From Chrysomallon squamiferum (Eukaryota > Animalia > Mollusca), in NCBI GenBank assembly GCA_012295275.1, contig CM022668.1:11036001-11100000 (forward strand): DNA of 64,000 nucleotides. Reading direction: 5' to 3'. Shown here piece after piece: positions 4,055 to 56,912 of the stretch. The number at the start of each line of letters is the position of its first letter. The stretch's first letter is position 1. Both the position numbers and the translations under genes were made by a program. Below the pieces are notes generated by a model, which was given only the letters and a program-made list of their open reading frames with translations, was not told the DNA's origin and searched no databases.

Positions 4055-6900
4055 ACCAGACACTTTTGTAGAAATGTTTCAGAGCATCCTAATACAAAGG
4101 AAGGTGTTTTAAAATGTTTCATAGATCGCATATCTGAAGCAAACTGGAACATAACACGAACACATACTCAGAATATTTAAATATTTACGATATGCAATTG
4201 TGTACTTCCTTTGAAAGTTTTTCTTCCCTGGTAACGGTACGTGCAATACTAATAGAATTAATCTTATAATACAATAATATGTTTATTATTTTCGACAAAT
4301 CTAGATGAAACTGATTAGAAAAAATGATTAAAGCTATTTTAAGAATGTAAATAAAAATAAAATTACTCTGACATTCTTATAAATCAGACTAAAAAAAAAG
4401 CAGCTTTCACAAATTGAGAAAATCACATCTTAGGCACATACAAATAAGTGCCTGGTAAAATGTATCAAGTTAGCAAAACTGGACAATGTAAAGATCTGCA
4501 CAATAGTCTAATACGTCAACTCTGGAGAGTAATTTCTCATATGCCGTATCAGATGCTCTCCTTCTCCTACAGGCTCAAGAAAACAAAAAGCAAGACAGAC
4601 TTCCAGAACATCAACATCCTATTGGAATCCCCTGCGGAACAACAGAACCAACAGCAGCTAAAGGAGACTACCTGGATAACTACAAGAACTCTCCATTAGA
4701 AGCAGTATGGCACAAGAACTGATCTACAGATTACAGTACCTTTCTCCACTGGCCTTCATGTGTAGCAAAAAGGGAACGAAAAAAAAAGAAAAAATCAAAT
4801 GGAAGTATATATGTATCTGATTATCACTATAGTAAAAAAAAAAAAAAAAAAAATGCAAACAAAGAAGAGACTGAAGTACTGTCAAAACAAACCAAAAAAA
4901 ATAATAACATCTATGAAACGAAAACGAAGATCGAATATTAAATGTATTTTTATTTTTAAGATATTGGCCCGATTAACGATTTTCAGTTGCTTCAGCAGAA
5001 ATGTAAAACATTTCTGAGATGGCCACACCTGAAACAACAAAACGATGAAAAATGTGACATCAGTAAAATAGAGACAAAAAAAAAGTATTTCAAATAAGAG
5101 AATTTTATATTTTTTCAGTTTTAATGAAAAAAATTAACACGTGATTAAAAAAGAAAAGAATTGATAAAAATGTAATTATCTTACCAATATTTTCTTATAT
5201 GATATATGTTGTTTAAATAATATATTAATTTTATATTTTATGTAAAGTAATAAATACCTGATCAAAAGTATTTTAATAGTAATAAAAGTTTAAATAATGT
5301 TTTCTTTTTCTTATTTTTTTTCACTTTTCTTTTACCCTTTTTTATTATCATTTTTGTTTTATTTTATTTTTCGTTTAATTTTTTTATTATCATTAATACT
5401 TTTGAGTAGGAGAGAAGTGATTACTACTTCTACTACTACTGCAACTACTACTTTCTATTTTATATGATTAATTTACGTATTAAAATAGCTACTTTTGAAA
5501 CGACAGATTTAATGTCAAATCTCAGCTACTGACGTACCTGTTCTAAATATCAAATCACATAAAAGAAAAGAGAACATTTTCCTATGAAAGATTTTAAAAT
5601 TATTTTCGTATTCATTCATTTTTATTTAAAAAAGTCAGTGAATCCCTTTGTATAGCTGTTTTGTCACGCTGAGTTTATCAGACAATAAAAAAAGATACGT
5701 GTTTGTGTTATGTGATTATAATACAAATAATACTTTCTCTTTCCTCTGATTAATTTATCTATTAACCTTTTTTTTTCAGTAGGACACTTTTATAAATTAA
5801 AAATACTACTACTAATAATAATTTATTTTATTTTTGTTTTTCCTTTAGTTTGTTTTTCCTCTGTAGATGTATATGTTTGTTTCGTTCGTATAGGTGAGTT
5901 TTGGCGTAATTATTGATGTTGTTGCTGTGTTTTTGTTTTTCTATTTTGATTACTTTTTAAAAGAAATGTTTACGTTCGTTCACATGCGTACTATTACCTT
6001 CATTATCACTTAAAACACTAAGATTAACTCTATGTGCTGTACTGTAGTGTTTCTCAGAACAGAATGGAAATTATTAAAGTTATAAACCACATGAATGAAC
6101 TACATGTTAAGTAAATGGTAACTATTATTATTGAATGCAAAATAAATAACACTGTTTAAAAATGATAATATATAGTAATAATAACTTTTATTTTTACAAT
6201 TTCATTGTTTTATTTATTTATTTTTTTTGAGAAAGACGTCATTACGATTATTATAAAATTGTGCTGTTACAACTACTACTACTATAATTTTCCATTTCTT
6301 GTGATTAATTTGTTTATTAAAATGAATATTTTCACTAGTAGAGATTTAATGTCAAATCTTCAGAGAATGACAGAGATAATTTCACCCTTGTTCATTTCAG
6401 TTTTGAAAAATAAATTAAATACTGTGAATATCTGTTCTGTCACACTGAGCTTCAACTCTGATAACACAGTAATGTTCTATACATAGAAACATTGAACATT
6501 TATTCTTCTGAGATAAACGAAAGCCAGCTGTTAATAAAAACTGAGTTTAACAATATTTGTTTTATCTTTTGTTTTCATTCAGTGATGGTAATTGCTTTTG
6601 CTGACATCTGTGAGGCTGAGATTGGAAAATAAATCAAACACTGCGCACAGCTGTTTTAATCCCTTGAGTTTAAACTCTGATAAGAGATGACTTATATTTT
6701 ATGTTCGGTGAACCTAATCTGAAAATTGGGTTTGCTGTTGGAGGACAAATATTACAACCGATTTTCATCCCTGACATGAATGAAATCAAAGAATAACTTT
6801 TATTAAGCCATATACATTTTTAAAATCATTTTCAGGAATACTTATAACAATAAAATAGATATCTAAATAGATAGACAGATAGATAGTTTCAGTTACTTAT
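4055..6900. repeat. Direct copy of ~55565-58700 with the terminal exon deleted; partial third copy at ~1110-2270
   Basis: Colinear match including the LINE fragment (4440-4770 vs 55960-56260) and the recurring ...SRDLMSNLQRMT... spurious ORF; the exon at 56721-56848 is absent at ~5260-5280. Confidence 0.85.
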
Positions 6901-8433: not shown

Positions 8434-8982
8434 GTTATTATTTATTTATTAATTACTTAATTGATTAATTATTAGACGACCCTACTGAAAATAATGTTTT
8501 TGATAAATAAATTAATCGGACGAAATAGAAAGTATTATTGTTTGCTCTTTCTATGTATTACTGATATTAGAATCACAGGGCACAAATGTGTGTCTTTTCA
8601 TCGTCAGTTAAACTCAGCATGACAGAACAGCTGTACACATTGGTTCACTGACTTTTTTAAATGAAAATCAATCAATATGAAATTAATCTCAAAGTCTGTC
8701 ATAGTAAAATTGTATCTTTTATTCTAAATTAATTGATACGTAGAACAGAGCCATCAGTAGCTGAGATTTGCATTAAATCTCTTCTTAAAAATAGCTCTTT
8801 TAATAAATAAATTAATCATTTAAAATAGAGAGTAGTAGTAGTAGTAGTAGCAGTAATTTCGCTCTCAAAAAAAAAATTAAAAGAAAATAATAACATTAAT
8901 AATAAAACAATTGAAAAGGGAAAAAAGAAAAAGATAAATTCATTAAATTTCATTATTAGTATTATTAATATTATTATTATTA

Positions 8983-9067
<85 letters not shown>

Positions 9068-9525
9068 GTTATCATTATTGCTGTTTTGGCTTTTGCTATT
9101 GTTATTATTATTATTATAGTTATTACACCTTTTATATACATCCATCCCTTCATTCATAAATATATGTAAGAACAAGAACATTTGAATGCATTCTTACATA
9201 CGTTTATACACACATACAAATACATGTACAGACATATACAAACAGAAACGTACATACAATACACACATATGCATACACGCATACATATCTATATACATAA
9301 ATTCATATATATATATATTCATACATACACACCTGGATAAAAACGCAGACCCATATTAATAAATAGATAAGTGTCTCTGTGTATTTAAATTTGACACTTG
9401 AACAACCAGTCATATTTCAGTTTTCATAAGCTCCTTGAAAATAGGCAAAAACAAATTGTTTGATTGACATTTAAAATCTCCTTAAATAACGCAGTCTGAT
9501 GTTTACGATTTTATTTACAATAACC

Positions 9526-11067
9526 ATGAATCAGAAGGACATTGTATTAAACATTTTCTTGGTGGGATGTTTCCTTCTGGTGTCGTCTGCGATGGAAAGA
9601 GTCTCCAGCAGTAAGATTTCATTTTCCTTTTACTTCTCTTTAAACAGCAGAAAGATTAGTTGCTGTTGTTTGGGGGGAGGGTGGTTTTTTTTTTTTTTTT
9701 TTTTTTTTTTCATTCTTTTAGAAATGTTAAATGATTTTGTTTATTAGTTTTATTTAAACACAGTAAGATCTTATTTTTCTTGCTGTTTATCTTTAAGCAG
9801 AATAAACTATTTATTTGTTTTAGTATTTTGTTTAGAAAAATGTAAAGCATTGTTGATTTGTTCTCATATTTTCTTTACACAGTAAAGCATTGTTTATTTG
9901 CTTGTTTTTATACTCTGTGTCTTTCCAGCTATACCTGGTTGTGAGTACATCGTTATTCCAGGCAGATATGGAGATGACTTCTATCTAAAAATTACAGGGT
10001 ACCATACACTTGAAGATTGTAGAAGGTTGTGTGACACACAAAACGGATACAATAATAAACCGTGTACTGCAGTAGAACATCTTGGCACCTACTGTTATTT
10101 GTATTCTTCCGTTTTCCCTTTCAGCTATTACTATTTTTCAACAATGTACATAAAATCCTGCAAAGACGGTAAGAAAATGTGTTGTTAAATATTCATTCAA
10201 GATTAGATGGTAATTTATGTCTTCTATTGATTTTTTTTCTGTTAAGAACAGAAGCTGCAAAAGTGCTACAAGAATTATAAAATATACTAACAATCTGCAT
10301 TTGGTTGTTGTTCCAACCAGTGATGCTTGACATGTTAATCAGATGAGAGAATAGTTAATATATGATTACTTTCTCCGGTTATCATTTAGCACTCCTTGTG
10401 TTTATTTTAATAAATCTACCTTTATTTTAGATATTTTAGAATTAAAATAAGAAAGATTTCTCTTTGTAGGCAAGGAACATTATTTTTCCTAAGGAAAATT
10501 TGTTTTGTTTTCTTTAAACAGTTTTTATAATCTGTCACAGGTACATGTGGATTACCATGTGCAAACGGCGCCACTGTAAACTTTGATGACTGTACTTGTT
10601 CTTGTTTGAATAACTGGGAAGACACTCTTTGTGGTAAGTTATTTCTTATTTGGTAACGTATTTGAATGAATGATAACTGTTCAGTGTAAAACGTCAAATA
10701 AACAAATGAATTCAGCATGCAGCGCAAAATGAGAATTAGGAAAAATTGATAAACTATTAGTAAACATTCAGAAGGTGACTAATGGAAAAGGAGAATCTGG
10801 TAAGACTCCATTACAAACTTTTCATTTTAAATTAGCAACTTTTTGGGATGTCCCTGAACATCATAACTACATAGGATCACAAAAAGTAAGGAATCATAAT
10901 TTACCTTGCTATAACATTTCAATGCTTATTAGCCAAGATGAAAACGTATTCCTTTCTAATGATATATCAGGTACGTGTGGATTTCCGTCTAAAAACGGTG
11001 CAATTCTAGTATGCAGGACTGTATTTGTTCTTGTATGGAAGGTGGGAAGGAATTGCCTTTCGTACGT

Positions 11068-11126
<59 letters not shown>

Positions 11127-13831
11127 TTATTTAAATTCAGATATATGCAACGAGGACTGTTTAAATGGCGGAGTGTTCAACTCAGATAACTGTACCTGTT
11201 CTTGTTTGAACAACTGGGAAGGAGATTTCTGTAGTAAGTATATTAATTCATATCATAATACGGCTTTATTCTCACGTCAGTTACTATAACTTATGCCTTT
11301 TCATTTTTTTTATTTTGTATTTATTATTTAAATTCAGATGTATGCAACGAGCACTGTTTAAATGGCGGAGTGGTCAACTCAGATAGCTGTACCTGTTCTT
11401 GTTTGAACAACTGGGAAGGAGATTTCTGTAGTAAGTATATTAATTCATATAATAATACGGCTTTATTCTCACGTCAGTTACTATAACTTATGCCTTTTCA
11501 TTTTTTTTTTTTTTTATTTATTATTTAAATTCAGATGTATGCAACGAGGACTGTTTCAATGGCGGAGTGTTCAACTCAGATAGCTGTACCTGTTCTTGTT
11601 TGAACAACTGGGAAGGAGATTTCTGTAGTAAGTATATTAATTCATATCATAATACGGCTTTATTCTCACGTCAGTTACTATAACTTATGCCTTTTCATTT
11701 TTTTTTTTTTTTTTTATTTTTTTAAATTCAGATGTATGCAACGAGGACTGTTTCAATGGCGGAGTGTTCAACTCAGATAACTGTACCTGTTCTTGTTTGA
11801 ACAACTGGGAAGGAGATTTCTGTAGTAAGTATATTAATTCATATCATAATACGGCTTTATTCTCACGTCAGTTACTATAACTTATGCCTTTTCATTTTTT
11901 TTTTTTTTTTATTATTTAAATTCAGATGTATGCAACGAGGACTGTTTCAATGGCGGAGTGTTCAACTCAGATAGCTGTACCTGTTCTTGTTTGAACAACT
12001 GGGAAGGAGATTTCTGTAGTAAGTATATTAATTCATATCATAATACGGCTTTATTCTCACGTCAGTTACTATAACTTATGCCTTTTCAGTTTTATTTATT
12101 TATTTATTTATATATTATTTAAATGCAGATGTATGCAACAAGGGCTGTTTAAATGGCGGAGTGTTAAACTCAGATAACTGTAACTGTTCTTGTTTGAACA
12201 ACTGGGAAGGGGATTTCTGTAGTAAGTATATTTTATAATGAATTCGTATGTTAATATGCAAAGAAGAAAATATTTAAATCCGCAATTTCTCGTTTTTCTT
12301 TTTCATTTATTTTCATTTATTTTCATTTATTTTGTTTTATTTATTTATTTTTTCATTTATTTTCATTTATTTTCATTTATTTTACTTTATTTTATTTATT
12401 TATTTATTTAAATTTAGATGTATGCAACGAGGACTGTTTTAATGGAGGCATCTTCAACTTAGGTGACTGCAGCTGTTCTTGTTTGAACAGCTGGGAAGGA
12501 GATTTCTGTAGTAAGTATATTAATTTATATCATAATACGGCTTTATTCTCACATCAAATACTGTGATTTATGCATTTTAAGTTTTATTTATTTATTTATT
12601 TAGAATATTTATCTGAAACTAAAGTTTATTTCATGTTCACTGTCACCGTGAGAGATTATCAGTTAGTTCTGTTATTATTTCACTCTGGTTTTAGTCCTGT
12701 ATCATGTTTTGGATTGCTCCAATAAGCCCTAACTTCACGACAGAAGGATGATAGCAACACTCATGTATTTTTCAGAACTAGACTTTCGTTGTTTAACTTC
12801 AGTTATTAATCATATTAATAAGCATTTTTAGTTTCCGTAGCTATCACATGCTGTATAAATGATAAATAAGCATTGATTGAATTCTATTCTTACAGATGAA
12901 TGCAATCTAGTCTGCCAAAATGGCGGTTTGTTGAATACGATATCTTGCACTTGTACGTGCAAAGAAAACTACTACGGGGATAAATGTGAGCTAAGTAAGT
13001 ACTTTTTTACATACACACACATAAACACACAGACACACACACACAAACACACACACACATACACAAACATACATTCTGATATAGACATGCTTGATATTCC
13101 TGTGCATATTCTTTCACACAAATAAATTTGATAAGAAGAAGAAGAAGAAGAAGTAAAATAAGAAGAAGAAGAAGAAAAAGAAAGAAATAATCCAGAAAAC
13201 AAGGAAATAAATAAAGAAATAACAGTTTCTTCTCCATTTTGCTAGATTTGTTAACATTTTAGCTTATTACTTTGGATTTGATCAGATATGACTTTCCTTT
13301 AATTTGTGATTCCAAACAAACATTTTCCAGGTTGCCATGATGACGCAGTGACCATAATGCATCAGATAATAGAGAAAGAATGTAGAGCTTCTGGAATGTT
13401 GTGGTTCTGGTGTGTGAAAACCTGTCAGTTATGTCAGAATGGTAAGTTGATATGTCTACGTACATACATTTGTAAATAAACAATAGTAAAATACATGCGT
13501 ATATATATAAAACAATAAGCAGGATGGACGTATTTCTCTCTGTATTACCAGTAAATGAAAGTATTTAAATGTGATATATATTCTTTCTTCAGTTCTTTTT
13601 GTATTCTTTTCAGTTCCTATTTGCATCCAGAATAGACCTCAGGCTTCTTATCAGGAATTATTTATTTGATTTGTTTGTTTTCTGTTTACTGTGATAGGCG
13701 TGGTGTGCAAGGACAGACAAGAAGAAAAGTGTAGCCATTTTGAAGAACATGCGTTTGACGAAGCCACTCACATGTTCTGTTATGAACGTGAGTCCCATGA
13801 GTGTCAGCACCTCTGTTTGTATTCAGAATAA
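9526..13831 (+). CDS. Gene A: secreted PAN/apple-like + 9 EGF-like + ShKT-like + His/Cys-rich C-terminal domain protein (~470 aa, 13 coding exons)
   Basis: GT-AG, all phase-1 exons: 9526-9610 (MNQKDIVLNIFLVGCFLLVSSAMERVSS, signal peptide), 9929-10168 (PAN-like), EGF 10541-10633, 11141-11233, 11338-11430, 11535-11627, 11732-11824, 11926-12018, 12129-12221, 12418-12510, 12896-12994, ShKT-like 13331-13441, terminal 13698-13831 (TAA). Sum 1413 nt, open frame if the decayed exon at 10971-11061 is skipped. Confidence 0.85.
9929..10168 (+). CDS. Gene A exon 2, PAN/apple-like domain
   Basis: IPGCEYIVIPGRYGDDFYLKITGYHTLEDCRRLCDTQNGYNNKPCTAVEHLGTYCYLYSSVFPFSYYYFSTMYIKSCKD: six Cys with the C-x3-C...C-x-A-V...C-Y-L PAN/apple pattern; ccag acceptor, gtaag donor. 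Confidence 0.8.
10971..11061 (+). pseudogene. Decayed EGF pseudo-exon inside gene A
   Basis: AG/GT retained but 91 nt rather than 93; two 1-nt deletions and two Cys lost relative to the intact homologue at 31421-31513 (GTCGLYCMNGATVDTQDCVCLCAGNWEGVVC). Confidence 0.75.
11141..12221 (+). repeat. Tandem array of ~197-bp exon+intron units, six near-identical EGF exons
   Basis: Exon starts 11141, 11338, 11535, 11732, 11926, 12129; consensus DVCNEDCFNGGVFNSDSCTCSCLNNWEGDFC; introns differ mainly in T-run length. Confidence 0.95.
13331..13441 (+). CDS. Gene A ShKT-like exon (5 Cys)
   Basis: CHDDAVTIMHQIIEKECRASGMLWFWCVKTCQLCQN; C-x-D start and C-x-K-T-C-x-x-C end typical of ShKT; second Cys absent. 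Confidence 0.7.
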
Positions 13832-15526
13832 ACAAAGTCCTTTATGAAAGGTATTACTGTCTTTCTTTACTCTGTTTTTATTAGTTCATTATTCAGGAGA
13901 TTAATAATATAGAAACCAATAATAATTTGAAATATTATAAAGCAATTTTTTTTTACTTTTTAATCACATTTTGAGTAAGTTTCTTAGGGGTGACAATGAA
14001 AGAAAATTTAAACATATAAATTACTTACTAAATAGTAAATAAATGAATATTTATGATTGTTGTTGTTGTTAATGTTATTGCTATATTAATGTTTTTATTT
14101 TTGTTATGATGATTTATTGTATATATATATATATCCAAATCAAGGTATCAGTAATTTTTTTTTTTTCTTTTAGATCTGAAAACTGGGTAATGCAGTTTAT
14201 GTAAACCCTCTGTCACAAATACGATTTCAAATAAAAGACATATGCTCTTCAACTAGATTTTTTGTTGTCTTTTTCAAAAGAAATAGCATATATCAGAACA
14301 AGAACACTACTACTACACATACTGTTAATACAACAATTACTAGTACTAGTATTCCTACTAATACTACTAGTGATAATCATTATTATAATAAAAAATATTT
14401 TTAAAAACTCAAAAATAAATCAAGAAATAAATAAGTATACAAATCAATGAATGAAGAATTAAATAAATAAATACGTGAATAAACCAAAAACTGTATGTAA
14501 ATAATTAAACAACGAATGAATGGATGAATGAATGAATAAGTGTAGTGTAACGCAGTAAGTAGATAAATAAGTGCACTTTCACTCATACATATTATCATCA
14601 CCTTCTTTGGGATGTTACTACTACTACTACTATTACTACTACTACTACCACTACTATTACTACTACTACTATTACTACTTTTACTATTACTACTGCTACT
14701 ACTACTGCTGCTGCTAGTATTAGTACTAGTTCTTTATTTTATTTTATCTATATTATATTATAGGCATATTATTCGACCGTGCAATTTTTAGAAATATATG
14801 TATAATTGTCAGTAAATAAATATATAAACAAACACATAAACTAGTAAGTGCAACGAAAATATACAAATTGTATATAAGGGAACTAACTCTCATTAAAACA
14901 GGAAAATAAACAGGAAGACGTCAAATTTCAGTAAGACTTCCTGCCATATCTCATTTTTCTAAATATTATCTACTTGATTTAAGATCAACGTTGCACTGTT
15001 CAATATTATTTATTTATTTATTTACTTACTTATTACTTGCTTACTTATTTTTGTATTTATTTATAGGGGTATGCGTAGTTACTTCTGAACTGAATGAAAC
15101 TCATACTGCCAACAAAATATATTTAAATCAGTATCAATGTAATAACAGAGGTTTAAGAGGCAGAATTTTAATATTAATGTAGGGGAATAACTCTTGATTT
15201 ACTCTCTCTCTCACACACTCACACATACACACACACGTACACTCACACACTCTAAAATAGATGTGTCTGTTACACGTGTACAAACGCTTTCTCACCAAGA
15301 TGTTTGATAATAACAAGAAGAAGAAGGAGAAGAAGAAGTAGAAGAAGAAGAAGAACAACAAGAAGTAAAACAGGAAAGAAATAAACCAGAAAACAAGGAA
15401 CTAAATAAACAAATCAAAACGTCTCTTCTCCATTTTGCTAAATTTGTTAATATTTTAGCTTATTACTTTGGATTTGATCAGATATGACTTTGCTTTCGTT
15501 TGTGATTTCTCACAAACATTTTTCGG

Positions 15527-15592
15527 GTTGCAGTGATGACACATCAGATAATAGAGAAAGAGTGTCAGCATCTCTGTGTGTATTCAAAATAA
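15527..15592 (+). pseudogene. Deleted duplicate fusing the ShKT exon 5' part to the terminal exon 3' part
   Basis: gttgcagtgatgac..catcagataatagagaaaga|gtgtcagcatctctgtgtgtattcaaaataa, within a copy (~15380-15720) of 13190-13940; acceptor AG mutated to GG. Confidence 0.75.
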
Positions 15593-15727
15593 ACAAAGTC
15601 CTTTCTCTAAGGTATTGTTTTTCTTTTTACTCTGTTTTTATTAGTTAATTATTCTGTAGATTAATTATATAGAAACCAATAACAATTTGAAATATTATCA
15701 AGTCATTTTTTTTATTAAATTTTGTTT

Positions 15728-20756: not shown

Positions 20757-21357
20757 ATGAGCCAGACGTGCATTGTGTTTTGTATTCTTTTGGTGGAGTG
20801 TTTTGTCATTCAGTTAGATACACGATAACTTACAGAGTGCGGTAAGATTTCATTTTATATATATACATACATACATACATACATACATGCATACATACAT
20901 ACATACATACATACATACAGATATATAGATAGATAGATAGATAGATAGGTAAGTATATGCGTACGCTATTTTATTTATTTTACTTTATATATTCTTTCAT
21001 TTCAGACATTTATTGTTGATATATTTTTATGTGTAAAAGATCCGAGTGTTAACTAATTCCTTGTTTGTTTATTTAGTGAGTGGAAACACTGATGTCCTTT
21101 CAGTTTAATTATATTATCTTTTATTTTGTGCAATGACGTAAAACAATTTGACCAATACCAAATCTTCGCTCATTTCACGTTGTCGTGGAGAGATTCAAGT
21201 TTTAATTCTGTTCATAGAAGGGAACCTCAAGGTCTGATATACCGATAAAGAAGAGATTTGATTTTATATTTATTTATCTCAGTCTGAACAAAAATCGAAC
21301 AGCTTTTTATTCATCGCAATTACCATATTCATAATCAAAATCATGATCATGATCATG

Positions 21358-21433
<76 letters not shown>

Positions 21434-21813
21434 TTTATTTACTTTAAGGCATTCCAGGTTGCGACTGTATCACTGTTCCGCATATACTCGGACTTGATGA
21501 TGTGGCTTACTATATCGGATATTATAGCAACGACGACTGCAAATATCTGTGTGACACGAAGACGTTTGATGGTAAAATGTGTCTTGCAGTAGAGAATTGG
21601 CGGTGAAACTGTTAGCTCTTCTCATCAAATTATATGTTTGCATTGAGCAGTCCCTCGACTCTGTTCATAAAAGCTTGCGATAACGGTAAACATACGAATG
21701 AAATAAATAAAATATTATATTAAAAAGCAATGACGATTTCTACAAATAAAAAATAACCCTTAGATAGACAGATAGAGGAATACATAGATAGATAGGTAGA
21801 CAGACAGACAGAC

Positions 21814-21870
<57 letters not shown>

Positions 21871-22505
21871 GATAGACAGATATAACAAGTACTAGAAATA
21901 TTTCGTTTATGCACTACAGAAATAAATAAATCAAATAAATTAAAATATAATAAATTAAAAAGTAATAAATCACAATATTTAAGAACAAAAGTCTGCTTAT
22001 TTTCTCATCAATTTGTTATCATTTGTTATCATGAGCAACTATCAAATACAGTAATGATTTCTCTGTGAGATAGTTATCGAGTGACATCTATTCGAATCAA
22101 CGAAGAAAGACTGTCGAAGATGAAAACATTTAATTTCTAATAATCAAAATCACTGACAAACTTTTTATCAAAATCATTGACAAACTTTTTATCACTATCA
22201 TTGACAATCTTTTAATCAAAACATTTCAAATACATAATAATCGTATCAGTTTCTCAATCTTCAGTCATTCTGTATTAAATGTGTTCTTGTTCCAGGCACA
22301 TGTGGATTGCCGTGCGCTCACGGCGGCACTATAAATCATGACGACTGTACTTGCAACTGTTTAGGGAACTGGGAAGACATTTTATGTCGTGAGTAACAAA
22401 GCTGATCTGCCTATAAACGAAACCTAAATTATTTAGTAGATGTTAGAAATAGGTGATAAATACTGAAAGAACACAAGCAAAAATCAATATGCGGAATTAT
22501 AATAA

Positions 22506-22536
<31 letters not shown>

Positions 22537-23642
22537 AATTATTATTATTATTATTAACATAGCTATAATAGTAATGACAATAAGTTTGCCATTTATTTAT
22601 TTTATGTTATTGTTCGTTTCTTTCAAATACAATGGAGAATACCGCCATGGAATATAGTAAGATTATTATTTAAATATCATAAAAAGAATATATTAAAATG
22701 TAAATAACTAAAACATACAATGTATTTCAATACATATGTTTTGAAATGTAATAACATAAATATATATCCAACATGTTTGCAATGTAAAAAGCTTAACATG
22801 TAATAATCTTAAAAAGGTATTACAAGTATTAAAATACGTAAAAACAGCATGAAAAGCTATAATATTAAAATTCGAAAAAACATCTTTCAAATGTAAAAGT
22901 ACTAAAAGTTACACAACCATTTAATAAAATGTAAAAGTATTGTACGTCGTATAAACAAAATAATTTAATAGTTAATACATAAATTTGTAATTCAAACAGA
23001 ATAGCATAAAAAAATCACAGTGTACTTCAAATATTCGTTTGTTTGTAGATAAATGCAATCCACTGTGTCTAAACGGCGGAACATTTAACGAAGACTGTAG
23101 CTGCTCCTGCTTAGGAAAGTGGACAGGGAAATCCTGCAGTAAGTGTAACTGGATATAATGTTACTGCAAAGGGAATGATAAGTAGCTTAATGCTAAAGTA
23201 AGCAAACGAACATAAAGACGTTGATTTCCTACGTATTTTTGCATTACAGGTGTTTGCTCACGGAAGTGTGAGAACGACGGACTGCTGAATAGTCTTAGCT
23301 GCACTTGTACTTGTAAACGTGGCTATTATGGAGAGGACTGTGAGCTAAATATGTATCAGCTATACCTTTATGTGTCTTACTGTCTGTATGTGTGTGCGAC
23401 TGTGTTTTAAAATGCAATAAAATGTCGTGCTTCACATATTTATTTGTGTGTGTGTATATATATCCATGCATAAATATATTCGCAAACATGTCCTAGTGGA
23501 TCAGTACACACGCACGCACGCATCCACGCACGCACACACATACATACATATATATTTTTATGTACATTCATTCATACATACAGACATACATACATACCTG
23601 TCTAAGTATTGGATTTCATCTGTCATTTGTAAAATCTTTAAA

Positions 23643-23692
<50 letters not shown>

Positions 23693-24801
23693 GTGAAAAG
23701 GTCTAAGTTCACTTAACAACTGGTTAAGGTTTGATGGTAGTGAAGAAAATGTTTACTATTTTTACTCTGAATGTTAGTTAACTTGGTGAATTATTTGCAG
23801 GCTGTGAAGAACAAATTGACTGTTACAAGAAAGTCATACTAAGAAACAAATGTGTAGCTGATCCTTCATTGTGGTTGTACTGGTGTACGAAAACCTGCGA
23901 CATGTGTCACCTAAGTACGTCCATGTCTACGTTCTTTTCTAAATCATAACACCATAACTGTCGTTAATTAAAATAGCTACTACATTATAACAATTCATGA
24001 ACTGCTTTATAATTATACAAACAAAACAAGAAAACTGTTATCTCTATTTGTACATCTGCCATTACCTCAATGAATCAAAAGTGAGTCCTGTAAATTCCTT
24101 ACTTTCACCTCTAACTGGAAGCCTTTAATACTATCACCATTGATATCATTACAATTTCCCTCTACTACTATTAGCATTAATACCATAACTACTATTATTA
24201 CTAATATCATAACTATTGTCTCTACCAGTATTATCAGTAATGCAATAATTACTGCCTCATTTACCACTAGCCTGACTACTGCCCCTACTATTTTTACCAT
24301 AATACCGTGACTACTGAACTACTGATGCTGGAGCTAAGTTCATTATCAGCATATCCATTATTACTACACTGAATAAACTACAACTACTGACATTTGTCTT
24401 TTGAGATAACTACCTTACTTCTACCATTGATAATAATTAGTTGCATATTATTTGGGAGTTATCTTTAAACCTAACCTTGTCTTTAAATATATGTGTGTGA
24501 ATGTGTGTGTGTGTTAATGTATATGTATAACTATATGTATGTATATGTGTATATATGTCTATGTGTGTGCATATATGTATTTATTTTAAAACATCATTTG
24601 AAATCCAGGCTATAACAGACCTATTAGAAAAAACGTATTCATTAGACAGTTTCTCTTATATTTTAACCTACTGTTTCAGCAAATGGAGCCTGCACTGACA
24701 AATATGAACATATGTGTGAGCATTTACGGATGCATGTTGCCCATGAATCGATTCATATGTTTTGCGATGAACACCACAACGTGTGTTCGCATATCTGTTA
24801 A
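20757..24801 (+). pseudogene. Gene B: PAN + 3 EGF + ShKT + His-rich terminal domain, pseudogene
   Basis: Exons 20757-20841 (TAA at 20826), 21449-21685 (TGA 21604, TAG 21613), 22296-22388, 23049-23138, 23250-23348 (donor GT>AT), 23801-23914 (CEEQIDCYKKVILRNKCVADPSLWLYWCTKTCDMCHL, full 6-Cys ShKT), 24680-24801 (NGACTDKYEHMCEHLRMHVAHESIHMFCDEHHNVCSHIC*). Confidence 0.85.
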
Positions 24802-24930: not shown

Positions 24931-25005
<75 letters not shown>

Positions 25006-25012
25006 TTCCTAG

Positions 25013-25094
25013 TGAAAGGACCATGTCTCAACAGAGATGAGCATTTGAGTGAACATTTGTACAGACATGTTTCATTAGAGGCCTTACATGTCTA
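25013..25094 (+). pseudogene. Truncated D-type terminal exon fragment
   Basis: KGPCLNRDEHLSEHLYRHVSLEALHV*, matches the 5' two-thirds of 43619-43746 in inverted orientation. Confidence 0.75.
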
Positions 25095-25511
25095 ATTATA
25101 TTTTTATCAATTTTAAATTTTATCACCTTAATTCACTAACAATTAAAAATATAAAATGTACTTGCTTTGAAATAATTAGTTTTCTTCTTTTTTAATGATG
25201 TCACTTTTATCACTGAGATGAGAGAATCAGACGTAGAATAGTTTATATATGATTCCATTTATGTCGAGCAATTGTAATCTGTTATAATTAAAACGATTTG
25301 CATGACTGTTTTTAATTTTGTTGTTTTCTTTCTTCTTCATCTTTCTCCGATTATTATTTAGCACTCCTTGTGTTTATTTTAATAAATCTACCTTTATTTT
25401 AGATATTTTAGAAATAAAATAAAAAGATTTCTCTATGTAGGCAAGGAACATTATTTTTCCTAAGGAAAATTGGTTTTGTTTTCTTTAAACAGTTTTTATA
25501 ATCTGTCACAG

Positions 25512-25604
25512 ATACATGTGGATTACCGTGTGAAAACGACGCCACTGTGAATTTTGATGACTGTACTTGTTCTTGTCTGGGCAATTGGGAAGACACTCTT
25601 TGTG
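25512..25604 (+). pseudogene. Orphan EGF-like exon (copy of gene A/D first EGF exon)
   Basis: TCGLPCENDATVNFDDCTCSCLGNWEDTLC with AG/GT; flanks match 10370-10680; no PAN exon found upstream. Confidence 0.75.
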
Positions 25605-25994
25605 GTAAATTTATTCTTATTTGGCAACTTATTTGAATGAATGATAACTGAACTCATTTACAAAAGAAATATTTCAACGTTAATCATCAAGTAGCTAATA
25701 TTTAGGAAAGTGATATATGAGAGGAAGACATTCTGAACAATGATGTCTTACTTTTTGCTGTATATTTTCCTATTTAAATAAGAGTTATTTCCCTTATATA
25801 CAAATTGTATATATTAACCTTCCACATATTTGTTTATCTGTTTGTTTACGTATTACTTACTGACAACTATAAAGTATTTCTAGAGCGAGCACATAATGCA
25901 CTGGTGAAAAGTTGTTATAGATAAAATAGAAGAATAGTAATAAGAATTAATAGTACTAGCATTAGCACTAGCAGTGGTACAATAAGAGCAGTAA

Positions 25995-26884: not shown

Positions 26885-29279
26885 TTATTTTGAATACAAG
26901 CAGAGGTGCTGACACTCATTGGACTCACGTTCATAACAGAACATGTGAGTGGCTTCGTCAAACGCATGTTCTTTAAAATGGCGACACTTTTCTTCTTGTC
27001 TGTCCTTGCACACCACGCCTATCACAATGAATAGAAAACAAAGATATGAAATAAATAATTCCTGATAAAAACCCTGAAGTCTACTCTGGATGCAAATAGG
27101 AACTGAGGAGGATACAAAAAGAACTGAAGAAAGAATATTTATCACATTTAAACACTTTCATTTACAAGTAAGACAGAGAGAAATACGTCCATCCTGCTTA
27201 TTGTTTTATATATATACGCATGCATTTCACTATTGTTTGTTTACAAATGTATGTACATAGACATATCAACTTACCATTCTGACATAAATGACAGGTTTTC
27301 ACACACCAGAACCACAACATTCCAGAACCTCTACATTCTTTCTCTATTATCTGATGCATTATAGTCACTGCGTCATCATTGCAACCTGAAAAATGAAAGC
27401 AATGTCATATCTGATCAAATCCAAAGTAATAAGCTAAAATGTTAACAAATCTAGCAAAATGGAGAAGAGACGTTTTATTTCTTTATTTATTTCCTTGTTT
27501 TCTGGTTTCTTTCATTCTTTTTTTATTCTTCTTCTTCTTCTTCTTCTTCTTCTTTTCTTCTTTTCCTTCTTTAAATAATAAAACCGTGCCTATGTATCGT
27601 GCCTTCTTTTTACCATTGTTTGTTCTTCTAAATTCATGTACTTACTTAGCTCACATTTATCCCCGTAGCAGTCTTCTTTGCACGTACATGTGCAAGATAT
27701 CGTATTCAACAAACCGCCATTTTGGCAGACTAGACTGCATTCATCTGTAAGAATAGAATTCAATCAATTTTTATTTATTTTACATACAACATCAGATATC
27801 TACGAAAACTAATATGATTAATGACGAAAAGAGTGTCACTGAAGATAAACAAAAGTCAATAACTGAAAAATACATGAGTGTTGCAATCATCCTTCTGTCG
27901 TGAAGTTAGGGCTTAAGGAGCGAATCCAAAACATGATACATGGCTAAAACCAGAGTGAAATAATAACACAACTGACTGGTAATATATTACTCTGACAGCG
28001 AACATGAAACAAACTTTAGTTTCAGATAAATATTCTAAATAAGAGAGACACAAATACTGCTTTCTTGTTTTGTAAATTAATTTGTATAGATCTTTGCAAA
28101 TAAGTAATATTTCAACTATCAAATATGCTTACCACATGTATCTCCTATCCAATAGTTGACACAAGAACAAGTACAGTCACTTTCATTCAACATGCCGCCA
28201 GGAAGACAGTCCTCGTTGCATACATCTGCATTTAAATAATAAATAAATTAAATTAAATTAAATTAAATTAAATAAATAAATAAATAAATAAATAAAACTT
28301 AAAAGGCATAAATCACAGTATTTGATGTGAGAATAAAGCCGTATTATGATATGAATTAATATACTTACTACAGAAATCTCCTTCCCAGTTGTTCAAACAA
28401 GAACAGCTGCAGTCACCTAAGTTAAAGATGCCTCCATTAAAACAGTCCTCGTTGCATACATCTAAATTTAAATAAATAAATAAATAAAATAAATGAAAAT
28501 AAATGAAAATAAATGAAAATAAATGAAAAAATAAATAAATAAAACAAAATAAATGAAAATAAATGAAAATAAATGAAAAAGAAAAAAGAGAAATTGCGGA
28601 TTTAAATATTTTCTTCTGTGCATATTAACATACGAATTAATTATAAAATATACTTACTACAGAAATCCCCTTCCCAGTTGTTCAAACAAGAACAGCTGCA
28701 GTCACCTAAGTTAAAGATGCCGCCATTAAAACAGTCCTCGATGCATACATCTGAATATAAATAAATTAATTAATAAAAAGTTTTATGGTATAAATCATAA
28801 TATCTGTTATTAAAAAGTAATAATAACAAAAGAAAAACCTGGTTTCTGATTACTTATTAATTTCTACGGAATCATTTTACATTTTCTTCTTTACATGTCA
28901 ACGTATGAATTAATTATCACAAATATTTACCACACGCCTCGCCATCCCATCTGCTCAAACAGGAACAGCTACAGTCAGTTTCGTCCAATGTACCTCCATT
29001 GTAGCAGGCATTAGAGCATTCAGCTGTGTTTGAATAAAGACATGAATAAATAAGTAAATAAATAAATAAATATTTCTTTCGTTTTTTTTTTTATTATTAT
29101 AATATTTGAAAATGTATAACGTTGTTATACAAAAATAAATTATTGATATCTTCACTCTTGATTTTTTCCCCCACCCTCTTGATTCCTATTGTCTATTTCT
29201 TCTATTTATTTATTTCTTTTTTTTTTTTTATTATCATTATTTTTGTTTAAGATATAGACGTGTATGGTGATATTGTTAA

Positions 29280-29316
<37 letters not shown>

Positions 29317-32300
29317 TTTTTTTTTTTTTTTTTTTTTACAAAGGTAATATTTAGGAATAAATGAAAGGAATTACATAATTAAATATCACTGTGAGTATAC
29401 AGAATATTCTTTCATTTATTAAAACTTCAAAACCTGTCTTAATTATATATGTTTTGTCTATGTGTGAATGTTTGCTTTTTAAGCACGTGTTGGAACGTTA
29501 TTAATTACTTCAAGAATCAAAAAACAAACAAAAAAAACCACATAAACATATAGACAAATTCATACTCTGTGGTTTGCTTGCAGTACTGAACACAAACGAT
29601 TCACATCAACAATGTAACTTCTTTAAATTTTACATAAATGAAAATTATTTAAAACCGTGTTTAGTTGCATCCATTGTTTTTAAACCAACAATTAAAATAA
29701 ACAGTCTCCTAGGTTGATAGATTTTCAGTTCTACGAAATCACATATTAGAACTACAGTTCAACAGTACCAAGTAGAAAACACGATAGTATTATTAAGTAT
29801 ACTTGCTACAGACATCTCCTACCCAGTAGAAAGCACGATAGTATTATTAAGTATACTTGCTACACACATCTCCTACCCAGTAGAAAACACGATAGTATTA
29901 TTAAGTATACTTGCTACACACATCTCCTACCCAGTAGAAAACACGATAGTATTATTAAGTATACTTGCTACAGACATCTCCTACCCAGTAGAAAACACGA
30001 TAGTATTATTAAGTATACTTGCTACAGACATCTCCTACCCAGTAGAAAACACGATAGTATTATTAAGTATACTTGCTACACACATCTCCTACCCAGTAGA
30101 AAACACGATAGTATTATTAAGTATACTTGCTACACACATCTCCTACCCAGTAGAAAACACGATAGTATTATTAAGTATACTTGCTACAGACATCTCCTAC
30201 CCAGTAGAAAACACGATAGTATTATTAAGTATACTTGCTACAGACATCTCCTACCCAGTAGAAAACACGATAGTATTATTAAGTATACTTGCTACACACA
30301 TCTCCTACCCAGTGGTCTATACAAGAACAGCTACAGTCAGCGAGGTTCAAACTGCCTCCATTGGAGCATTCACTATCACATATATCTGGAGGTAAATAAA
30401 TGCATTAATAAATAAATAAATAAATAAGCACAATGCATTATTATCACGATTTCAGAATTTTATAGTTGTTATTTTAAAGTGATTCATTTTCGTTTCTATA
30501 TTTTTATCATTCTAATTATAGATTGCCACAGCTATTTACTGCCTTTGACTATCTATGCTGTTTTACTGCGATTATATAGAAATGTATGAAATAGACGCCA
30601 TTTAAAAGAGTAAAAACAATGAGTTTAAATTTATATTACTTTAAAAAAAAAATGTATTTAATATACTCACTACATGATATTCCACTCCAGGTGTTCAAAC
30701 AAGTACAGGTGCACTCATTTGCATTGAATGTGGCGCCATTAGAACAATCTACGTTGCATATATCTGAATTAAAAACAGCAGCAACAAAACAATAATAATA
30801 ATAAACAGCAACAAATAAACAATCAAACAATCAAACAAACAGACAAAAAAAACAAACAAACAAATAAAAAATGAATGAATCAATCATTCAATAAATATTT
30901 GTAATATAGATATATTTTCTGTCTATGTTCTTTTAGTGCGATTATTCTCACAGTAATCTGGTTTCTATAGTGATGTAACAGAAAGTATTATGTCAGATTC
31001 TCCTTCATACACAACACTACATCTTTTCCTTTCTCATTTAAACAGACTTCAAGAAGTCAGCACAACATCATCTTTTGTTTAATCTGACTTTCAAAGTTTA
31101 CTCAATTCTGGAAAATGCTTGTACTTTATAGTTCAATCATTGTGTGACCAGAAGCAACTAGAAGAAGAAAACTCCTAGTCTAAAATTTGTTTAATGATAT
31201 TTGATTGCTATTTCTGATCTTATGTAATTATTACATACATTTGTAGTGTAAAACCTAGATTAGATCAGTTTTCTTTTTATTAATTTAATTTTGATATTTG
31301 TGACTCTCAGCTTTTTAGAAATATTTTCCTTGAACGATGTGTTTAGATTTTCATTGTTTAATAGTAATCATTTGAAAACATTAGTAAAATAATTAAAAAT
31401 AAACAAATAAACAAACGTACGACACACAACGCCTTCCCAGTTTCCGGCACAAAGACAAACACAGTCCTGCGTGTCTACTGTTGCGCCATTCATACAGTAC
31501 AATCCACACGTACCTGAAACAGATACAATAAAATCATTAAAGAGTGGGAAACAATAGAAAAAAACAATTTGTGACAATTTAAAAAAATCCTTATTTCTCT
31601 ACTTATAGAATGTGTTCTTTTTTCATCTTTAAATGATATAAATTAAACGTGGATTTATTAAAACTGTGTAATGATGGTTGTCTTAGGTAAACACGAACTA
31701 TTGATGTAAATGTTTTTAGTAGTAAAATAAATGTTTGCTGACATGTATAAAATTCCAATACCAATTTCTTTTTCATCGGATTAACATTTCATATAGTACA
31801 GTTGAAAAACCTTTTAGTAATTTTTTATGTTTGTTACACTTCTCTTAATATTCTTAATGTTCTGTGATATGATCTTAAAAATCCACAAAAAGAGATAATT
31901 TAGCATTTTATCTCCGATGAATATTTTCCATTTTACCATCAGTGCACGCTTTTACTAAGAGTGTGGCGTCCTCCAAGGGCAGGAATGGTGAGTCATTGCT
32001 AGTATGTAAGAAACAGGCACCTAAATACAATCCCGCAGAAATACAAGGTGGATCACCGGCATATTCGTCACAAAAAGTTATACACGGTTCAGTTTCAATC
32101 GCTGGTGTTTGATCCTCCGAGTCGAATCCAATAAAATCTGGAATAACTATGTATTCACAACCAGAATCACCTGCGGAAAAATGTATTACCAAAAAATAGA
32201 ATTAGAACAAAACAATAAAAGCCATTTTTTGTTCTACAAATAAAACAATAAAACAAATTAGCAGTGTTTTTCTGTTATTTAAATGAATCAACAATACAAA

Positions 32301-32773
32301 TAAACTGTTTACTTCTGTCTAAACACAAACAGAAAATAAATAATATCTTATTTTTCTTTAAATACAAAAGGTAAGCAAAATAGTTCTTTTATTTAAATAA
32401 AACAATATAACAAAAGAACCCCAGTATGTTATTTAAATAAAACAATAAATAAATAAAGAGTGTCTTACTCTTGCTTAAATAAATAATAAACCTAATTCTT
32501 TCTGCTACACAAATGCAAAAATATCAAAGTTTTCGTCCCATTTAAATATATCAACAGTACAAATAAATGAATTATTTCTGCAGTTTAAATAAAATAAAAT
32601 AAAAATCAAGTGTCATTGCTATTTAAATAAAATTATAAAATAAATACTATTGCTATCTGAATGAAATAAATCAAAAAAATCTTACCACTGGGGAGTCTCT
32701 CTTCCACACATGAAATGAGGAGGACAAAACACTGAATTAAGAAAATTTCCAACACGATTTTCTTCTGTGTCAT
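26885..32773 (-). CDS. Gene C: secreted PAN/apple-like + 8 EGF-like + ShKT-like + His/Cys-rich C-terminal domain protein (~438 aa, 12 coding exons)
   Basis: Exons (minus): 32773-32686 (MTQKKIVLEIFLIQCFVLLISCVEERLPS), 32170-31937 (PAN-like), EGF 31513-31421, 30763-30671, 30385-30293 (GC donor), 29023-28931, 28750-28658, 28461-28369, 28225-28133, 27744-27646, ShKT-like 27385-27275, terminal 27018-26885. Sum 1317 nt, open frame, all phase 1. Confidence 0.85.
29773..30312. repeat. Minisatellite, 10 x 54 bp
   Basis: Unit tagaaaacacgatagtattattaagtatacttgctaca[c/g]acatctcctacccag starting at 29773, 29827 ... 30259; the last unit overlaps the end of exon 30293-30385. Confidence 0.97.
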
Positions 32774-43618: not shown

Positions 43619-43753
43619 TCAACAACAGAGATGTTGACATTCATTGTTCTGACGTTGATCACAAAACATGTGTAAGGCCTCTAAAGAAGCATGTCTGTAC
43701 AAATGTTCACTCAAATGCTCATTTCTGTTCAGACATGGTCCTTTCACTAAGAA

Positions 43754-43849
<96 letters not shown>

Positions 43850-46800
43850 TAAAATAAAAATAAATAATAATATAATATAAAATAAAGCAAATCAAATAAA
43901 TAAAACCATATTTTTGTCACTGTCAACACAGAGATCACTATAGTTTTGTCATCCTCTTCATTATTTTTTTTTCTTCTTTTTGTGGCTCTTTCGTCCTTAT
44001 GTATACATCATAGTTCCAGATAAGCTGGGACATGTAAGATTTCAAAGTTTTGTATAGTATAATTTTGTAATGATTTAGACATAAACGGAGACACACACAC
44101 ATGAACATACCTAGGTGACACATGTCGCAGGTTTTCGTACACCAGTACAACCACAATGAAGGATCAGCTACACATTTGTTTCTTATTATTTCTTTCACGT
44201 AACTCTGAACTTGTTCTTCACAGCCTGTTAATGAAACGAAACATTAAACAACAATATGTGTGAGAAAGACTCATGCGACTATCAACGATCAAGATATTAG
44301 TGGTTTTTCTCACAAGTAAGACATAAAATGTGTTTGAAAGTATTAGCTAAAGCATTTTTTATACCTGCGTTACTGTTTAATATGGCCAAAGTCATCTAGA
44401 TCTATTGTCACGACATTTTTGCATTCTTTGCTTATCCAATGCTATGTGGAGACTGACAGCTGGATAGACATTTAAAATGATGGAATTCAAAGAGTGCGAA
44501 AGTACAAATTGAACTTCATTTTTGTCGTCTTAAACGGAACTGATAAAAAAAATAGAAACCCGAAAGTGCTAAAAATTCATTGCCATTTGTAAATGCGTAT
44601 TTTTAAGTTAAAAGTATATTATAATATTTATTTTCGGCACCATATTTTTTAAAGGAAAGGTTTATAATATTATAATTATTGTGTGTTGATTCTTAAACTA
44701 TAAGGCTGATACGTACTTTGCTCACAGTTTTCTCCATAGTAATCTTTTGGGCAAGTACAAGTACAAGGTATTGTATTCAACGAACCTCCATTTTCACATC
44801 GTCGTACACAAACACCTGTAATATACAATATAACTTCTAATAACGATGTTATATATTTATTTATTACTCTGTTCAAAGGACAAAGAACATGCCTGACACA
44901 TTCAGAAAACGTCTAGTAACTGATATGTTTTCAGTTTTATTTTTTTGTTAAATGACACCAAGACAAAGAAGATTCACAGATAATCTATTGGGAAGACTAA
45001 TTTTTATTATTTTATTTATTTATTTTTTTCTTCTCTTATTTTTTTCTCCATTTTTCTTGCCCAACTAACGGCGACGAATCCTTGCTAACAATAATGTTTG
45101 ACGTTTGGAAAGTAAACATATGAAGATAAACTAAGAATGATGTAAATACTTAAGCGAATTCATTTGCGGTTTGCAAAATACTGAAAAAATAGTTTTCTTT
45201 CTACTTGCTTTATTCTAAATGATCAATAAGATGATCATCTTACTTTATTGTTAATAACGACTGGAAGCACTACATAACAGAACAAAATACACTATATACA
45301 GAAACTGCCTATTTGAAAATATTCTTGAATCAAGGATATTGCTGTAATCATAATATATCTTTTAATTCACATTTGCAAAGAAACCAAAACGTCAAATACA
45401 CTTACTACATGATTTTCCTCCCCAGTTTTCAGGACAGGAACAGCTACAGTTACTTCTTGTGAATGTGCCGCCACGAAAACAGTTCTCATTACACGTCCCT
45501 GAATTCAAATAAATAAATGAATAAATAAATAAATAAGTAAATAAATAAAAAGATTATTGTTATTATTTCAATGTTTTATAGCAGATATACTACATAATTT
45601 TACTTCCCAGCTGTTCATTCAGGAATAGGTACAATAATTATCATTCAACGGACATCCTCTGAATTTAGTTATTTATTAGACATTTTAGATTGAACAGTTA
45701 TAATTCATTCAGATATGTTACCAAATAAGAATAAACTTACCACAGAGAATGTCTTCCCAGTTGTCCAAACAAGAACAAGTACAGTCATCAAAGTTTACAG
45801 TGGCGCCGTTTGCACATGGTAATCCACATGTACCTGTAACAGATCATAAATAAAACTCTTAAAAAAAAAATAAGATGAAAAATTAACCAAAGCAAAAATA
45901 TTGATATTTATGTTCATTGCTTACAAAGAGACAACGTTCTTATTTTATTTCTGAAATATTTTAAATAAAGGTGGATTTATTAAAATAAACAGAACGAGTG
46001 TTAAAAAATAATCGGTGACAAATGAAGAAGAAAGAAAGAAAGAAAAATAAAAACAGTTATGCAAATATCTTTAATTGTAACTGATTGCAAACACTTGATA
46101 AATGATTGTAATAATATATACACTTGTCTACGTCCCGTTTTCTCATCTGATTAACATTTCTAACACCACAGGTTAGAAGAATAAAATAAGTTTGTTAGTA
46201 TATTTTATAAATCTTGTAGTACTTTGGAAACTTCTGTTCCTAAAAGAAGAACAAATCAATAGAAGACATAAATTAGCATCTAATTTTTAAGGAATATTTA
46301 ACAACACATTTTCTTACCGTCATCGCACACTTTTGCGAACATCGTGGAACCAGTGTTATAGCTGAAAGGGTAAACGGAAGAATACAAATAACACCAGCCG
46401 TAATAATATTCTACTGCAGTACACGGTTTGTTATTATATCCGTTTTGTGTGTCACACAGCTCTCTACAACCTTCATATGTATAGTCCTCTCCAATTTCTA
46501 GATAGAAATCGTCTCCGTATGTGTATGGAATGACGATGTACTCACAACCAGGTATACCTGGAAAAACACAGAATATAAACCCCAAAAAAAAAAACAACAA
46601 CAACAACAACAACAACAAAAAACAAACAAACATAAAAAAACGTGTTACAGATGTTTAAATAAAAAGTTAAAACTAATAATAAAAAATAACTGAGTAATGT
46701 ATGAAGCAGTAAAACAAATAAGTATTTTATAGTCGTTTAAATAAAACAATTAAACAAATAATCTTTCTTTAACTCTTTTGTAAATTTAATTAATATAATA

Positions 46801-53503: not shown

Positions 53504-53595
53504 GTATATGGTGCAAGGACAGACAACGAGAAAAGTGTCATAATTTTAAAGAACATGCTTTTGATGAATATTCGCATATCTTTTGTTATGTTTAA
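53504..53595 (+). pseudogene. Truncated A/C-type terminal exon, followed by an A-like 3'UTR segment
   Basis: IWCKDRQREKCHNFKEHAFDEYSHIFCYV*; 53773-54000 resembles 14174-14400; a more decayed copy lies at ~61910-61975. Confidence 0.75.
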
Positions 53596-56720: not shown

Positions 56721-56876
56721 TCAAAAACAGACATGTAGACATTCATTGTTCTGACGTTGATCACAAAATATGTGTAAGGCCTCTAAAGAAGCATGTCTGC
56801 ACAAATATTCACTTAAATGCTCATTTCTGTTCAGACATGGTCCTTTCACTAGGAAAATAATAATAATAATAATAAT

Positions 56877-56912
<36 letters not shown>

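Follow-up and report, generated by a model that had tools for sequence, protein, structure and literature searches.

Conotoxin-type genes combine a conserved signal exon and a fixed set of Cys residues with a mature exon that changes above the neutral rate at many sites. An EGF stalk carrying a variable distal domain, together with strong variation between individuals, is typical of gamete-recognition and self-recognition proteins. PAN domains mediate the binding of proteins or carbohydrates and occur in immune candidates of snails (available parts of PMC7588048 and PMC13712769), and in the family of leech antiplatelet protein (LAPP) and saratin purifying selection mostly prevails, with 2-4 selected codons, as described in the available part of PMC3631404. 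Searches of the open-licence literature on PAN/apple combined with ShK, EGF, mollusc or selection gave, among the matches listed, no paper on a PAN-EGF-ShK family, and the secreted multigene family with PAN-EGF-ShK-like architecture described here is apparently undescribed so far.

The window, by which we mean the whole 64-kb stretch of DNA that was analysed, has a G+C content of 29%, many microsatellites and spliceosomal introns, and therefore comes from an AT-rich animal genome. It contains four paralogues (A, B, C and D) of one gene and several remnants (Table 1), and the architecture read from the exons is signal, PAN, three to nine EGF, ShK-like and His/Cys tail. Gene A consists of 13 exons (9526-13831, plus strand), namely signal, PAN, nine EGF-like, ShK-like and His/Cys-rich tail, and its joined exons form a frame of 1413 nt with a single terminal stop and 71 Cys; Pfam EGF matches to its EGF exons are weak and below the cut-off. 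Paralogue C has an open frame of 1317 nt with eight EGF exons and one GC donor, while paralogue B has an in-frame stop in the signal exon and two more in PAN. As assembled, the signal exon of paralogue D is frameshifted in a homopolymer run, which may be a long-read or assembly error or a recent loss; the other exons of D are open and constrained. The EGF stalk counts 3 modules in B and D, 8 in C and 9 in A, and as no copy contains a transmembrane segment, the product is predicted to be secreted.

Table 1. Exons and paralogues of the family in the window (position 1 is the first letter of the window)
Feature	Position	Strand	Remarks
Gene A exon 1, signal-peptide-like	9526-9610	+	ATG, hydrophobic stretch, GT donor
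Gene A PAN/apple exon	9929-10168	+	6 Cys; hypervariable codons 11-12, 20-32, 50-54, 62-78
Gene A EGF-like exon 1	10541-10633	+	near-identical to D counterpart
Degenerate copy of C first EGF exon, in gene A intron	10967-11097	+	76% to 31517-31387, broken frames
Gene A, eight more EGF-like exons	11141-12994	+	starts 11141, 11338, 11535, 11732, 11926, 12129, 12418, 12896
Gene A ShK-like exon	13331-13441	+	5 Cys, C-x-K-T-C-x-x-C end
Gene A last exon	13698-13831	+	His/Cys-rich tail, stop
Paralogue B	~20757-24801	+	pseudogene; signal, PAN, 3 EGF, six-Cys ShK-like, tail
Orphan intron end and EGF1 exon	25341-25650	+	EGF1 exon 25512-25604; intron portion matches A at 97% identity
Paralogue C	26885-32773	-	intact; 12 exons: signal, PAN (32170-31937), 8 EGF, ShK-like, tail
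Paralogue D	43620-47683	-	signal, PAN, three EGF, ShK-like, tail
Paralogue D signal exon	47683-47600	-	
Paralogue D PAN exon	46557-46318	-	
Paralogue D EGF exons	45833, 45498, 44815	-	
Paralogue D ShK-like exon	44224-44111	-	
Paralogue D tail	~43746-43620	-	

Several other repeats accompany the four genes. Seven of the EGF exons of gene A lie in 11141-12510 (+), where five form a tandem array with a period of about 197 nt, and a 54-nt minisatellite at 29766-30300 repeats the end of an EGF exon of paralogue C with its donor site, this being the exon that uses the GC donor. Stranded ShK-like/tail exons with no PAN head are found at 15512-15616 (+), 25004-25088 (+), 48342-48211 (-), 51509-51399 (-), 53511-53590 (+), 56857-56721 (-), 59839-59729 (-) and 61909-61974 (+), and are leftovers of additional copies. 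A non-coding unit of 1-2 kb occurs five times (1116-2269, 5431-6686, 8555-9116, 48442-50335 and 56722-58875); it takes in the region upstream of A and D and marks the duplication unit.

The PAN exons of A and D, both 240 nt long, of phase 1 at both ends and with cag and gtaag at their borders, differ at 47 of 240 nt and in the amino acid of 23 of 79 whole codons, or 24 of 80 with the split junction codon, which agrees with the hand count in the earlier note. All 6 Cys are kept, and the patches named in that note are present around the invariant Cys (codons 11-12, 20-32, 50-54 and 67-69), with additional variable codons at 62, 73, 74, 76 and 78. Clustering of the variable codons is modestly above chance in 20,000 permutations with Cys held fixed (p = 0.014 for runs, 0.012 for adjacent pairs and 0.027 for the longest invariant stretch, which has 17 codons). 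The Tyr counts of 12 in A and 14 in D were likewise correct, and Tyr stands on one side of 12 of the 23 changes. Tyr-richness as a family trait was ruled out, as the PAN of C has 3 Tyr and that of B has 6.

The exons on either side are much more alike, with 2 of 30 residues (4 of 90 nt) different in EGF1, exactly as claimed earlier, and 1 residue of 27 comparable codons (2 substitutions and one indel) in the signal exon; set against PAN, these residue changes (3/57 versus 23/79) give a Fisher p of 0.0004. It had also been claimed that the signal exon and the start of intron 2 look more alike than PAN, which is true of the signal exon and of the first 65 nt of intron 2 (4 differences), but not to a significant degree of the introns overall: per-segment alignments of the five intron blocks that could be aligned show 106 differences in 730 columns (14.5%), and the excess of the PAN exon (46/237, 19.4%) is non-significant (p = 0.08). 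Upstream DNA, which is 22-28% different, was excluded from this neutral yardstick, and adding it would shrink the gap between exon and introns. The contrast of PAN with its neighbours stems mainly from constraint on the neighbouring exons, and conversion may contribute besides constraint to the near identity of EGF1.

Nei-Gojobori estimates between A and D are dN 0.234 and dS 0.195 for PAN, dN 0.029 for EGF1 and dN 0.016 for the signal exon. The dN/dS of the whole PAN exon is about 1.2-1.45 and not significantly greater than 1, since a single-ratio codon model gave an omega of 1.45 when the introns served as the neutral clock (p = 0.077 versus 1) and 1.38 without them (p = 0.41). The changes are unevenly spread among the codons: 47 are identical, 19 have a single base changed and 13 have two or three changed, whereas only 5.6% of intron triplets differ at two bases. 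In codon models run with our own pairwise code on two sequences (A and D), with a gap-free alignment assumed, M2a was preferred to M1a both with the neutral rate tied to the introns (LRT 25.5, p = 3e-6; 65% of codons with omega near 0 and 35% with omega of about 6.4) and on the exon alone (LRT 19.5, omega 14), so the magnitude of omega varies with the model and omega is above 1 in every model. A null with two codon classes of different age and omega not above 1, i.e., a conversion mosaic, was rejected (LRT 20.0), as were doublet-mutation nulls (LRT 24.9 and 17.6, and 13.4 with a free doublet rate, p = 0.001), and in simulations none of 150 replicates under each of three nulls reached the observed grid LRT of 17.3, the highest being 6.9. 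Doublet mutation was rejected as the source of the signal, given the LRT that persists with a free rate and introns with no doublet excess (14/683 observed versus 14.4 expected), and so was CpG hypermutation, with CpG touched by 6 of 46 differences.

Synonymous changes adjoin the patches (codons 13, 15, 16, 70 and 71) and also occur within the invariant stretches (codons 8, 40 and 42), which means that these stretches are selected and not freshly converted. Taken together, the PAN exon is very probably under site-specific diversifying selection. The proposal of such selection in the earlier note is thus upheld by the site models, which found a class with omega above 1 when applied as M1a/M2a to the A/D pair, and by recurrent change at the same codons; the whole-exon ratio and the comparison of exon with introns, both non-significant, do not carry it.

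Further versions of the head are present in contigs from seven public DNA runs of three studies, of which X1-X4 were compared with A and X2, X5, X6 and X7 with the PAN of D; contigs with a likeness of at least 80% were taken, and these mix alleles, paralogues and pseudogenes. A given difference at one site was carried by up to 12 contigs on A and 8 on D, so that each run holds several close copies. The 40 differences listed on A (of 228) comprise 15 in the PAN exon (240 nt), 13 in intron 2 (372 nt), 7 in intron 3 (167 nt), 3 in intron 1 (209 nt) and 2 in EGF1. Scored singly, the 40 differences listed on D (of 120) are non-synonymous in 31 cases and synonymous in 9, and 8 of these 9 are simply the base of A. 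Sixteen of the same 40 are states absent from both A and D, 15 of them non-synonymous and 1 synonymous, which is non-significant against neutrality (p = 0.074). The 15 non-synonymous novel states among the differences listed fall in 13 codons, 8 of which belong to the 23 that vary between A and D (p = 0.008; 0.015 without Cys), and 7 of the 16 novel states listed are a third base where A and D already differ (p = 0.023). Between A and D, the 13 codons themselves have 15 differences in 39 nt, a higher proportion than the 106/730 of the introns (p = 0.0003).

Loose contig ends, translated by hand, yielded extra versions of the patches (RRTRGY at 19-24, SNATL at 23-27, TYFGA at 50-54 and GTTGY at 11-15), and some variants have charged patches in place of Tyr patches. 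Contigs at least 99% like D number 6, 0, 5 and 0 in X2, X5, X6 and X7, respectively. One contig class, seen in three runs, gains one base and loses another at two PAN sites separated by 24 codons (window positions 46451 and 46524, in codons 35 and 11, respectively), the loss being present in a fourth run too; this class is a compensated frameshift or a dead copy. Run X3 has a contig identical to A over the 5' half of PAN (9949-10080) and none with the bases of A at codons 68-69 (10133-10136), a weak hint of patch reshuffling between alleles. An assembly chimera as the source of the patches was rejected, as there are contigs that reproduce A (9949-10080) and D (46305-46432) without a single error.

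With respect to the fold, C4, C30, C34, C45, C55 and C77 are invariant in A, D, C and the outside protein P0002, with C-x3-C on the helix. The model of the A head, made from a four-sequence alignment (pLDDT 87), has predicted strands at 4-14, 18-21, 47-51, 54-58 and 64-77 and a helix at 27-36, and it matches the plasminogen PAN with Z 10.5 (rmsd 2.1 Å, 72 residues aligned), HGF with Z 10.1, factor XI/kallikrein with 8.5-9.0, SML-2/MIC4 with 8.0-8.3 and LAPP (1i8n) with 8.6 (rmsd 2.7 Å, 76 residues, 14% identity, rank 28). Foldseek E-values were 0.015 or worse, Pfam PAN_1 matched A at E = 0.004 (17.4 bits versus a cut-off of 21.4) and had no match in D and C, and Atlas features placed the head at 0.94 to PAN clusters. 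The predicted structure confirms the A head as a PAN fold.

In the PAN topology as we take it to be, codons 20-29 and 50-54 should adjoin at the pole opposite the C4-C77 stalk end, codons 11-12 should face 67-69, and codons 74, 76 and 78 should point alternately to the same side along the last strand, with the invariant codons 1-10 and 33-49 presumably at the stalk end. Such a layout fits an exposed site, and the variable patches would be a putative binding surface in the modelled head. The analogy with antibody CDRs drawn in the earlier note is a loose one: 12 of the 23 variable residues belong to predicted strands and 3 to the helix, which leaves 8 for the loops, nothing speaks for somatic diversification, and C and B have so few Tyr. 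The likeness to conotoxins suggested there extends to the conserved signal exon, the fast mature exon and the fixed Cys, and there is no sign of a venom role.

P0002, an 89-residue six-Cys PAN protein with 32% identity, was kept from the two matches of a search among representatives and is the sole credible outside relative found; the other, P0001 (1339 residues, cysteine-poor and bacterial-looking), was rejected as a chance match. Comparison of PAN A with longer proteins gave no homologue among 2 candidates, the PAN profile against proteins of near length gave one of 8, which was the input P0002 itself, and the tail profile gave none of 41, all three being weak evidence. A PDB sequence search with the PAN profile returned 2 chance matches only, and LAPP was not among them.

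Gene A is a mosaic, and thus a recombinant gene, with a D-like 5' part and with 3' exons that are 96-98% identical to those of C, whose PAN is 36% identical to that of A. The 3' half of A (12099-14978) is an inverted near copy of the 3' half of C (28777-25686), and the ShK-like exon of D resembles that of B. In intron 2 of gene A the 3' half is 97% identical to the orphan copy (25341-25511), while the EGF1 exon that follows is closer to D (4 nt) than to the orphan copy (10 nt), from which it follows that conversion acts at the locus.

The ShK-like exon ends in C-x-K-T-C-x-x-C in the family. An ShK domain has six Cys with C-x3-C-x2-C at its end, and here the count is six in B but five in each of A, C and D. 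None of the 4 ShK-like exons carries a Lys at the dyad position, in the segment preceding C-x-K-T-C, and loss of the Lys-Tyr dyad has been taken as a sign against a channel-toxin role (available part of PMC7333891). This exon had no Pfam match and, with a low-confidence model (pLDDT 63), no fold or PDB sequence match; in the Atlas it falls in clusters that have PF01549 on 11% of their members. The tail encoded by the last exon of A and its paralogues has 40 residues with invariant Cys and four invariant His and gave no Pfam or protein match; it could be a metal-binding or ShK-derived module.

To hypothesize, the product would be a soluble recogniser in which an EGF spacer, changing in length, joins the variable PAN head to the conserved tail. 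The head would sit at the end of a stalk of 3-9 EGF modules, and the conserved ShK-like and His/Cys tail would do a common job, for example anchoring or oligomerising. Each copy may have its own glycan or protein ligand, of the kinds bound by other PAN domains, with selection for new specificity acting on one third of the head codons, and the repertoire would turn over by birth and death, through duplication, change of the exon array and pseudogenisation, and by exon-scale conversion. By analogy with known families, the PAN head quite possibly serves for recognition, with microbes or parasites as its opponents in an arms race, an assignment that we hold just short of probable; if selection is granted, a defence-related target becomes, by the same analogy, moderately probable. 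It is a more doubtful extension that the locus belongs to a new germline-encoded variable receptor system on a PAN scaffold, a soluble repertoire in which four patches are selected and reshuffled by conversion between copies, and equally doubtful that the set of heads differs from one individual to another, the EGF stalks and effector tails being interchangeable.

It seems unlikely that there is no positive selection and that the exposed patches are merely unconstrained, with short conversion tracts from older paralogues or pseudogenes importing blocks of change. The non-significant whole-exon omega and PAN-intron comparison, the synonymous changes beside the patches and a mosaic locus with dead copies all suit such an account, and multinucleotide changes can mimic selection (10.1101/165969, available part), but the two-age mosaic and doublet nulls were rejected, the simulations never reach the data, the invariant stretches carry synonymous changes of their own, and third-base states recur at the same non-synonymous sites among the differences listed. 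A structural protein of mucus, glue or shell matrix, with Tyr used in cross-linking and its positions free to wander, is very improbable; wandering Tyr positions do not yield an omega above 1. It would explain why the Tyr totals stay so similar although half of the changes involve Tyr, and EGF- and ShK-bearing proteins are present in limpet adhesive mucus (available part of PMC7333891); the Tyr-poor heads of C and B and the contig variants with charged patches for Tyr patches speak against it.

The same selection could also have another opponent, in that a salivary or venom-gland effector may use its PAN head to track prey or host proteins, which we consider unlikely as well. LAPP is among the fold matches, but only as the 28th, below plasminogen and HGF; the LAPP/saratin genes are polymorphic tandem arrays with few selected codons (PMC3631404, available part), and salivary CAP-ShK proteins of type II have an EGF and atypical-ShK tail of variable length (PMC6409789, available part), although the same source places type II CAP-ShK genes in non-predatory molluscs too. 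The conserved signal exon with a fast mature exon would suit an effector, yet no copy has a CAP or protease domain and the four ShK-like exons lack the Lys. It is quite improbable that the product acts in gamete or self/non-self recognition and owes its diversity to sexual conflict or frequency-dependent selection. The typical build of such proteins, an EGF stalk with a variable distal domain, is that seen here, and the number of contigs nearly identical to D varies by run, but contigs missing from a run are no proof of absence, neither A nor C has a transmembrane segment, and most of the variation seems to be among co-existing copies, a single run having as many as 8-12 contigs at a site, and not among alleles of one locus.

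Fast-evolving secreted multigene families are common, and the selection pattern by itself is unsurprising; less usual are PAN as the diversified module, the proportion of about one third of its codons, and the PAN-EGF-ShK-like architecture, which the protein searches likewise did not bring up. If the receptor system proposed above were real, PAN would be one more scaffold, besides Ig, LRR and lectin, on which invertebrate immune diversity is built. With 80-residue heads and a natural series of variants, the family lends itself to inexpensive tests of ligand specificity, and a prediction of the binding site can be read from the selected codons.

Compared with known systems, the family shares the six-Cys pattern and predicted fold of PAN/apple domains (PF00024; plasminogen/HGF N-domains, factor XI/prekallikrein apples and TgMIC4/SML-2 lectins), but it is only 11-19% identical to solved members, carries just one PAN, placed N-terminally to an EGF stalk, and lacks kringle and protease domains. 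LAPP/saratin is similar in being a secreted PAN encoded in polymorphic tandem arrays with some positively selected codons (available parts of PMC3631404 and PMC7191736), but 2-4 selected codons stand there against about one third of the PAN codons here, and the solved LAPP chain is a lone PAN of 89 residues, whereas our family has a long EGF tail and no sequence match to it. Type II CAP-ShK proteins (Cumia CreCAP-ShK 4-7, Conus Mr30/Tex31) also join a signal and one N-terminal domain to a variable EGF-like and poorly recognisable ShK-like run (PMC6409789, available part); in the family described here PAN replaces CAP, exon 2 being PAN in all four copies and the frames of A and C being open with no CAP in them, and the likeness is by architecture only. 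The Biomphalaria FREPs/FReDs and the PAN/C-lectin candidates are multigene families of secreted or surface proteins in which the binding module varies and PAN/apple is present in some (PMC7588048 and PMC13712769, available parts), whereas fibrinogen, IgSF and C-lectin domains are absent from every copy here; each coding exon of A and C has been assigned, none of them to fibrinogen. Finally, unlike conotoxins, which the gene recalls in its conserved signal exon and fixed Cys, this is a modular protein of 440-470 residues in which only one exon of 12-13 is the fast one.
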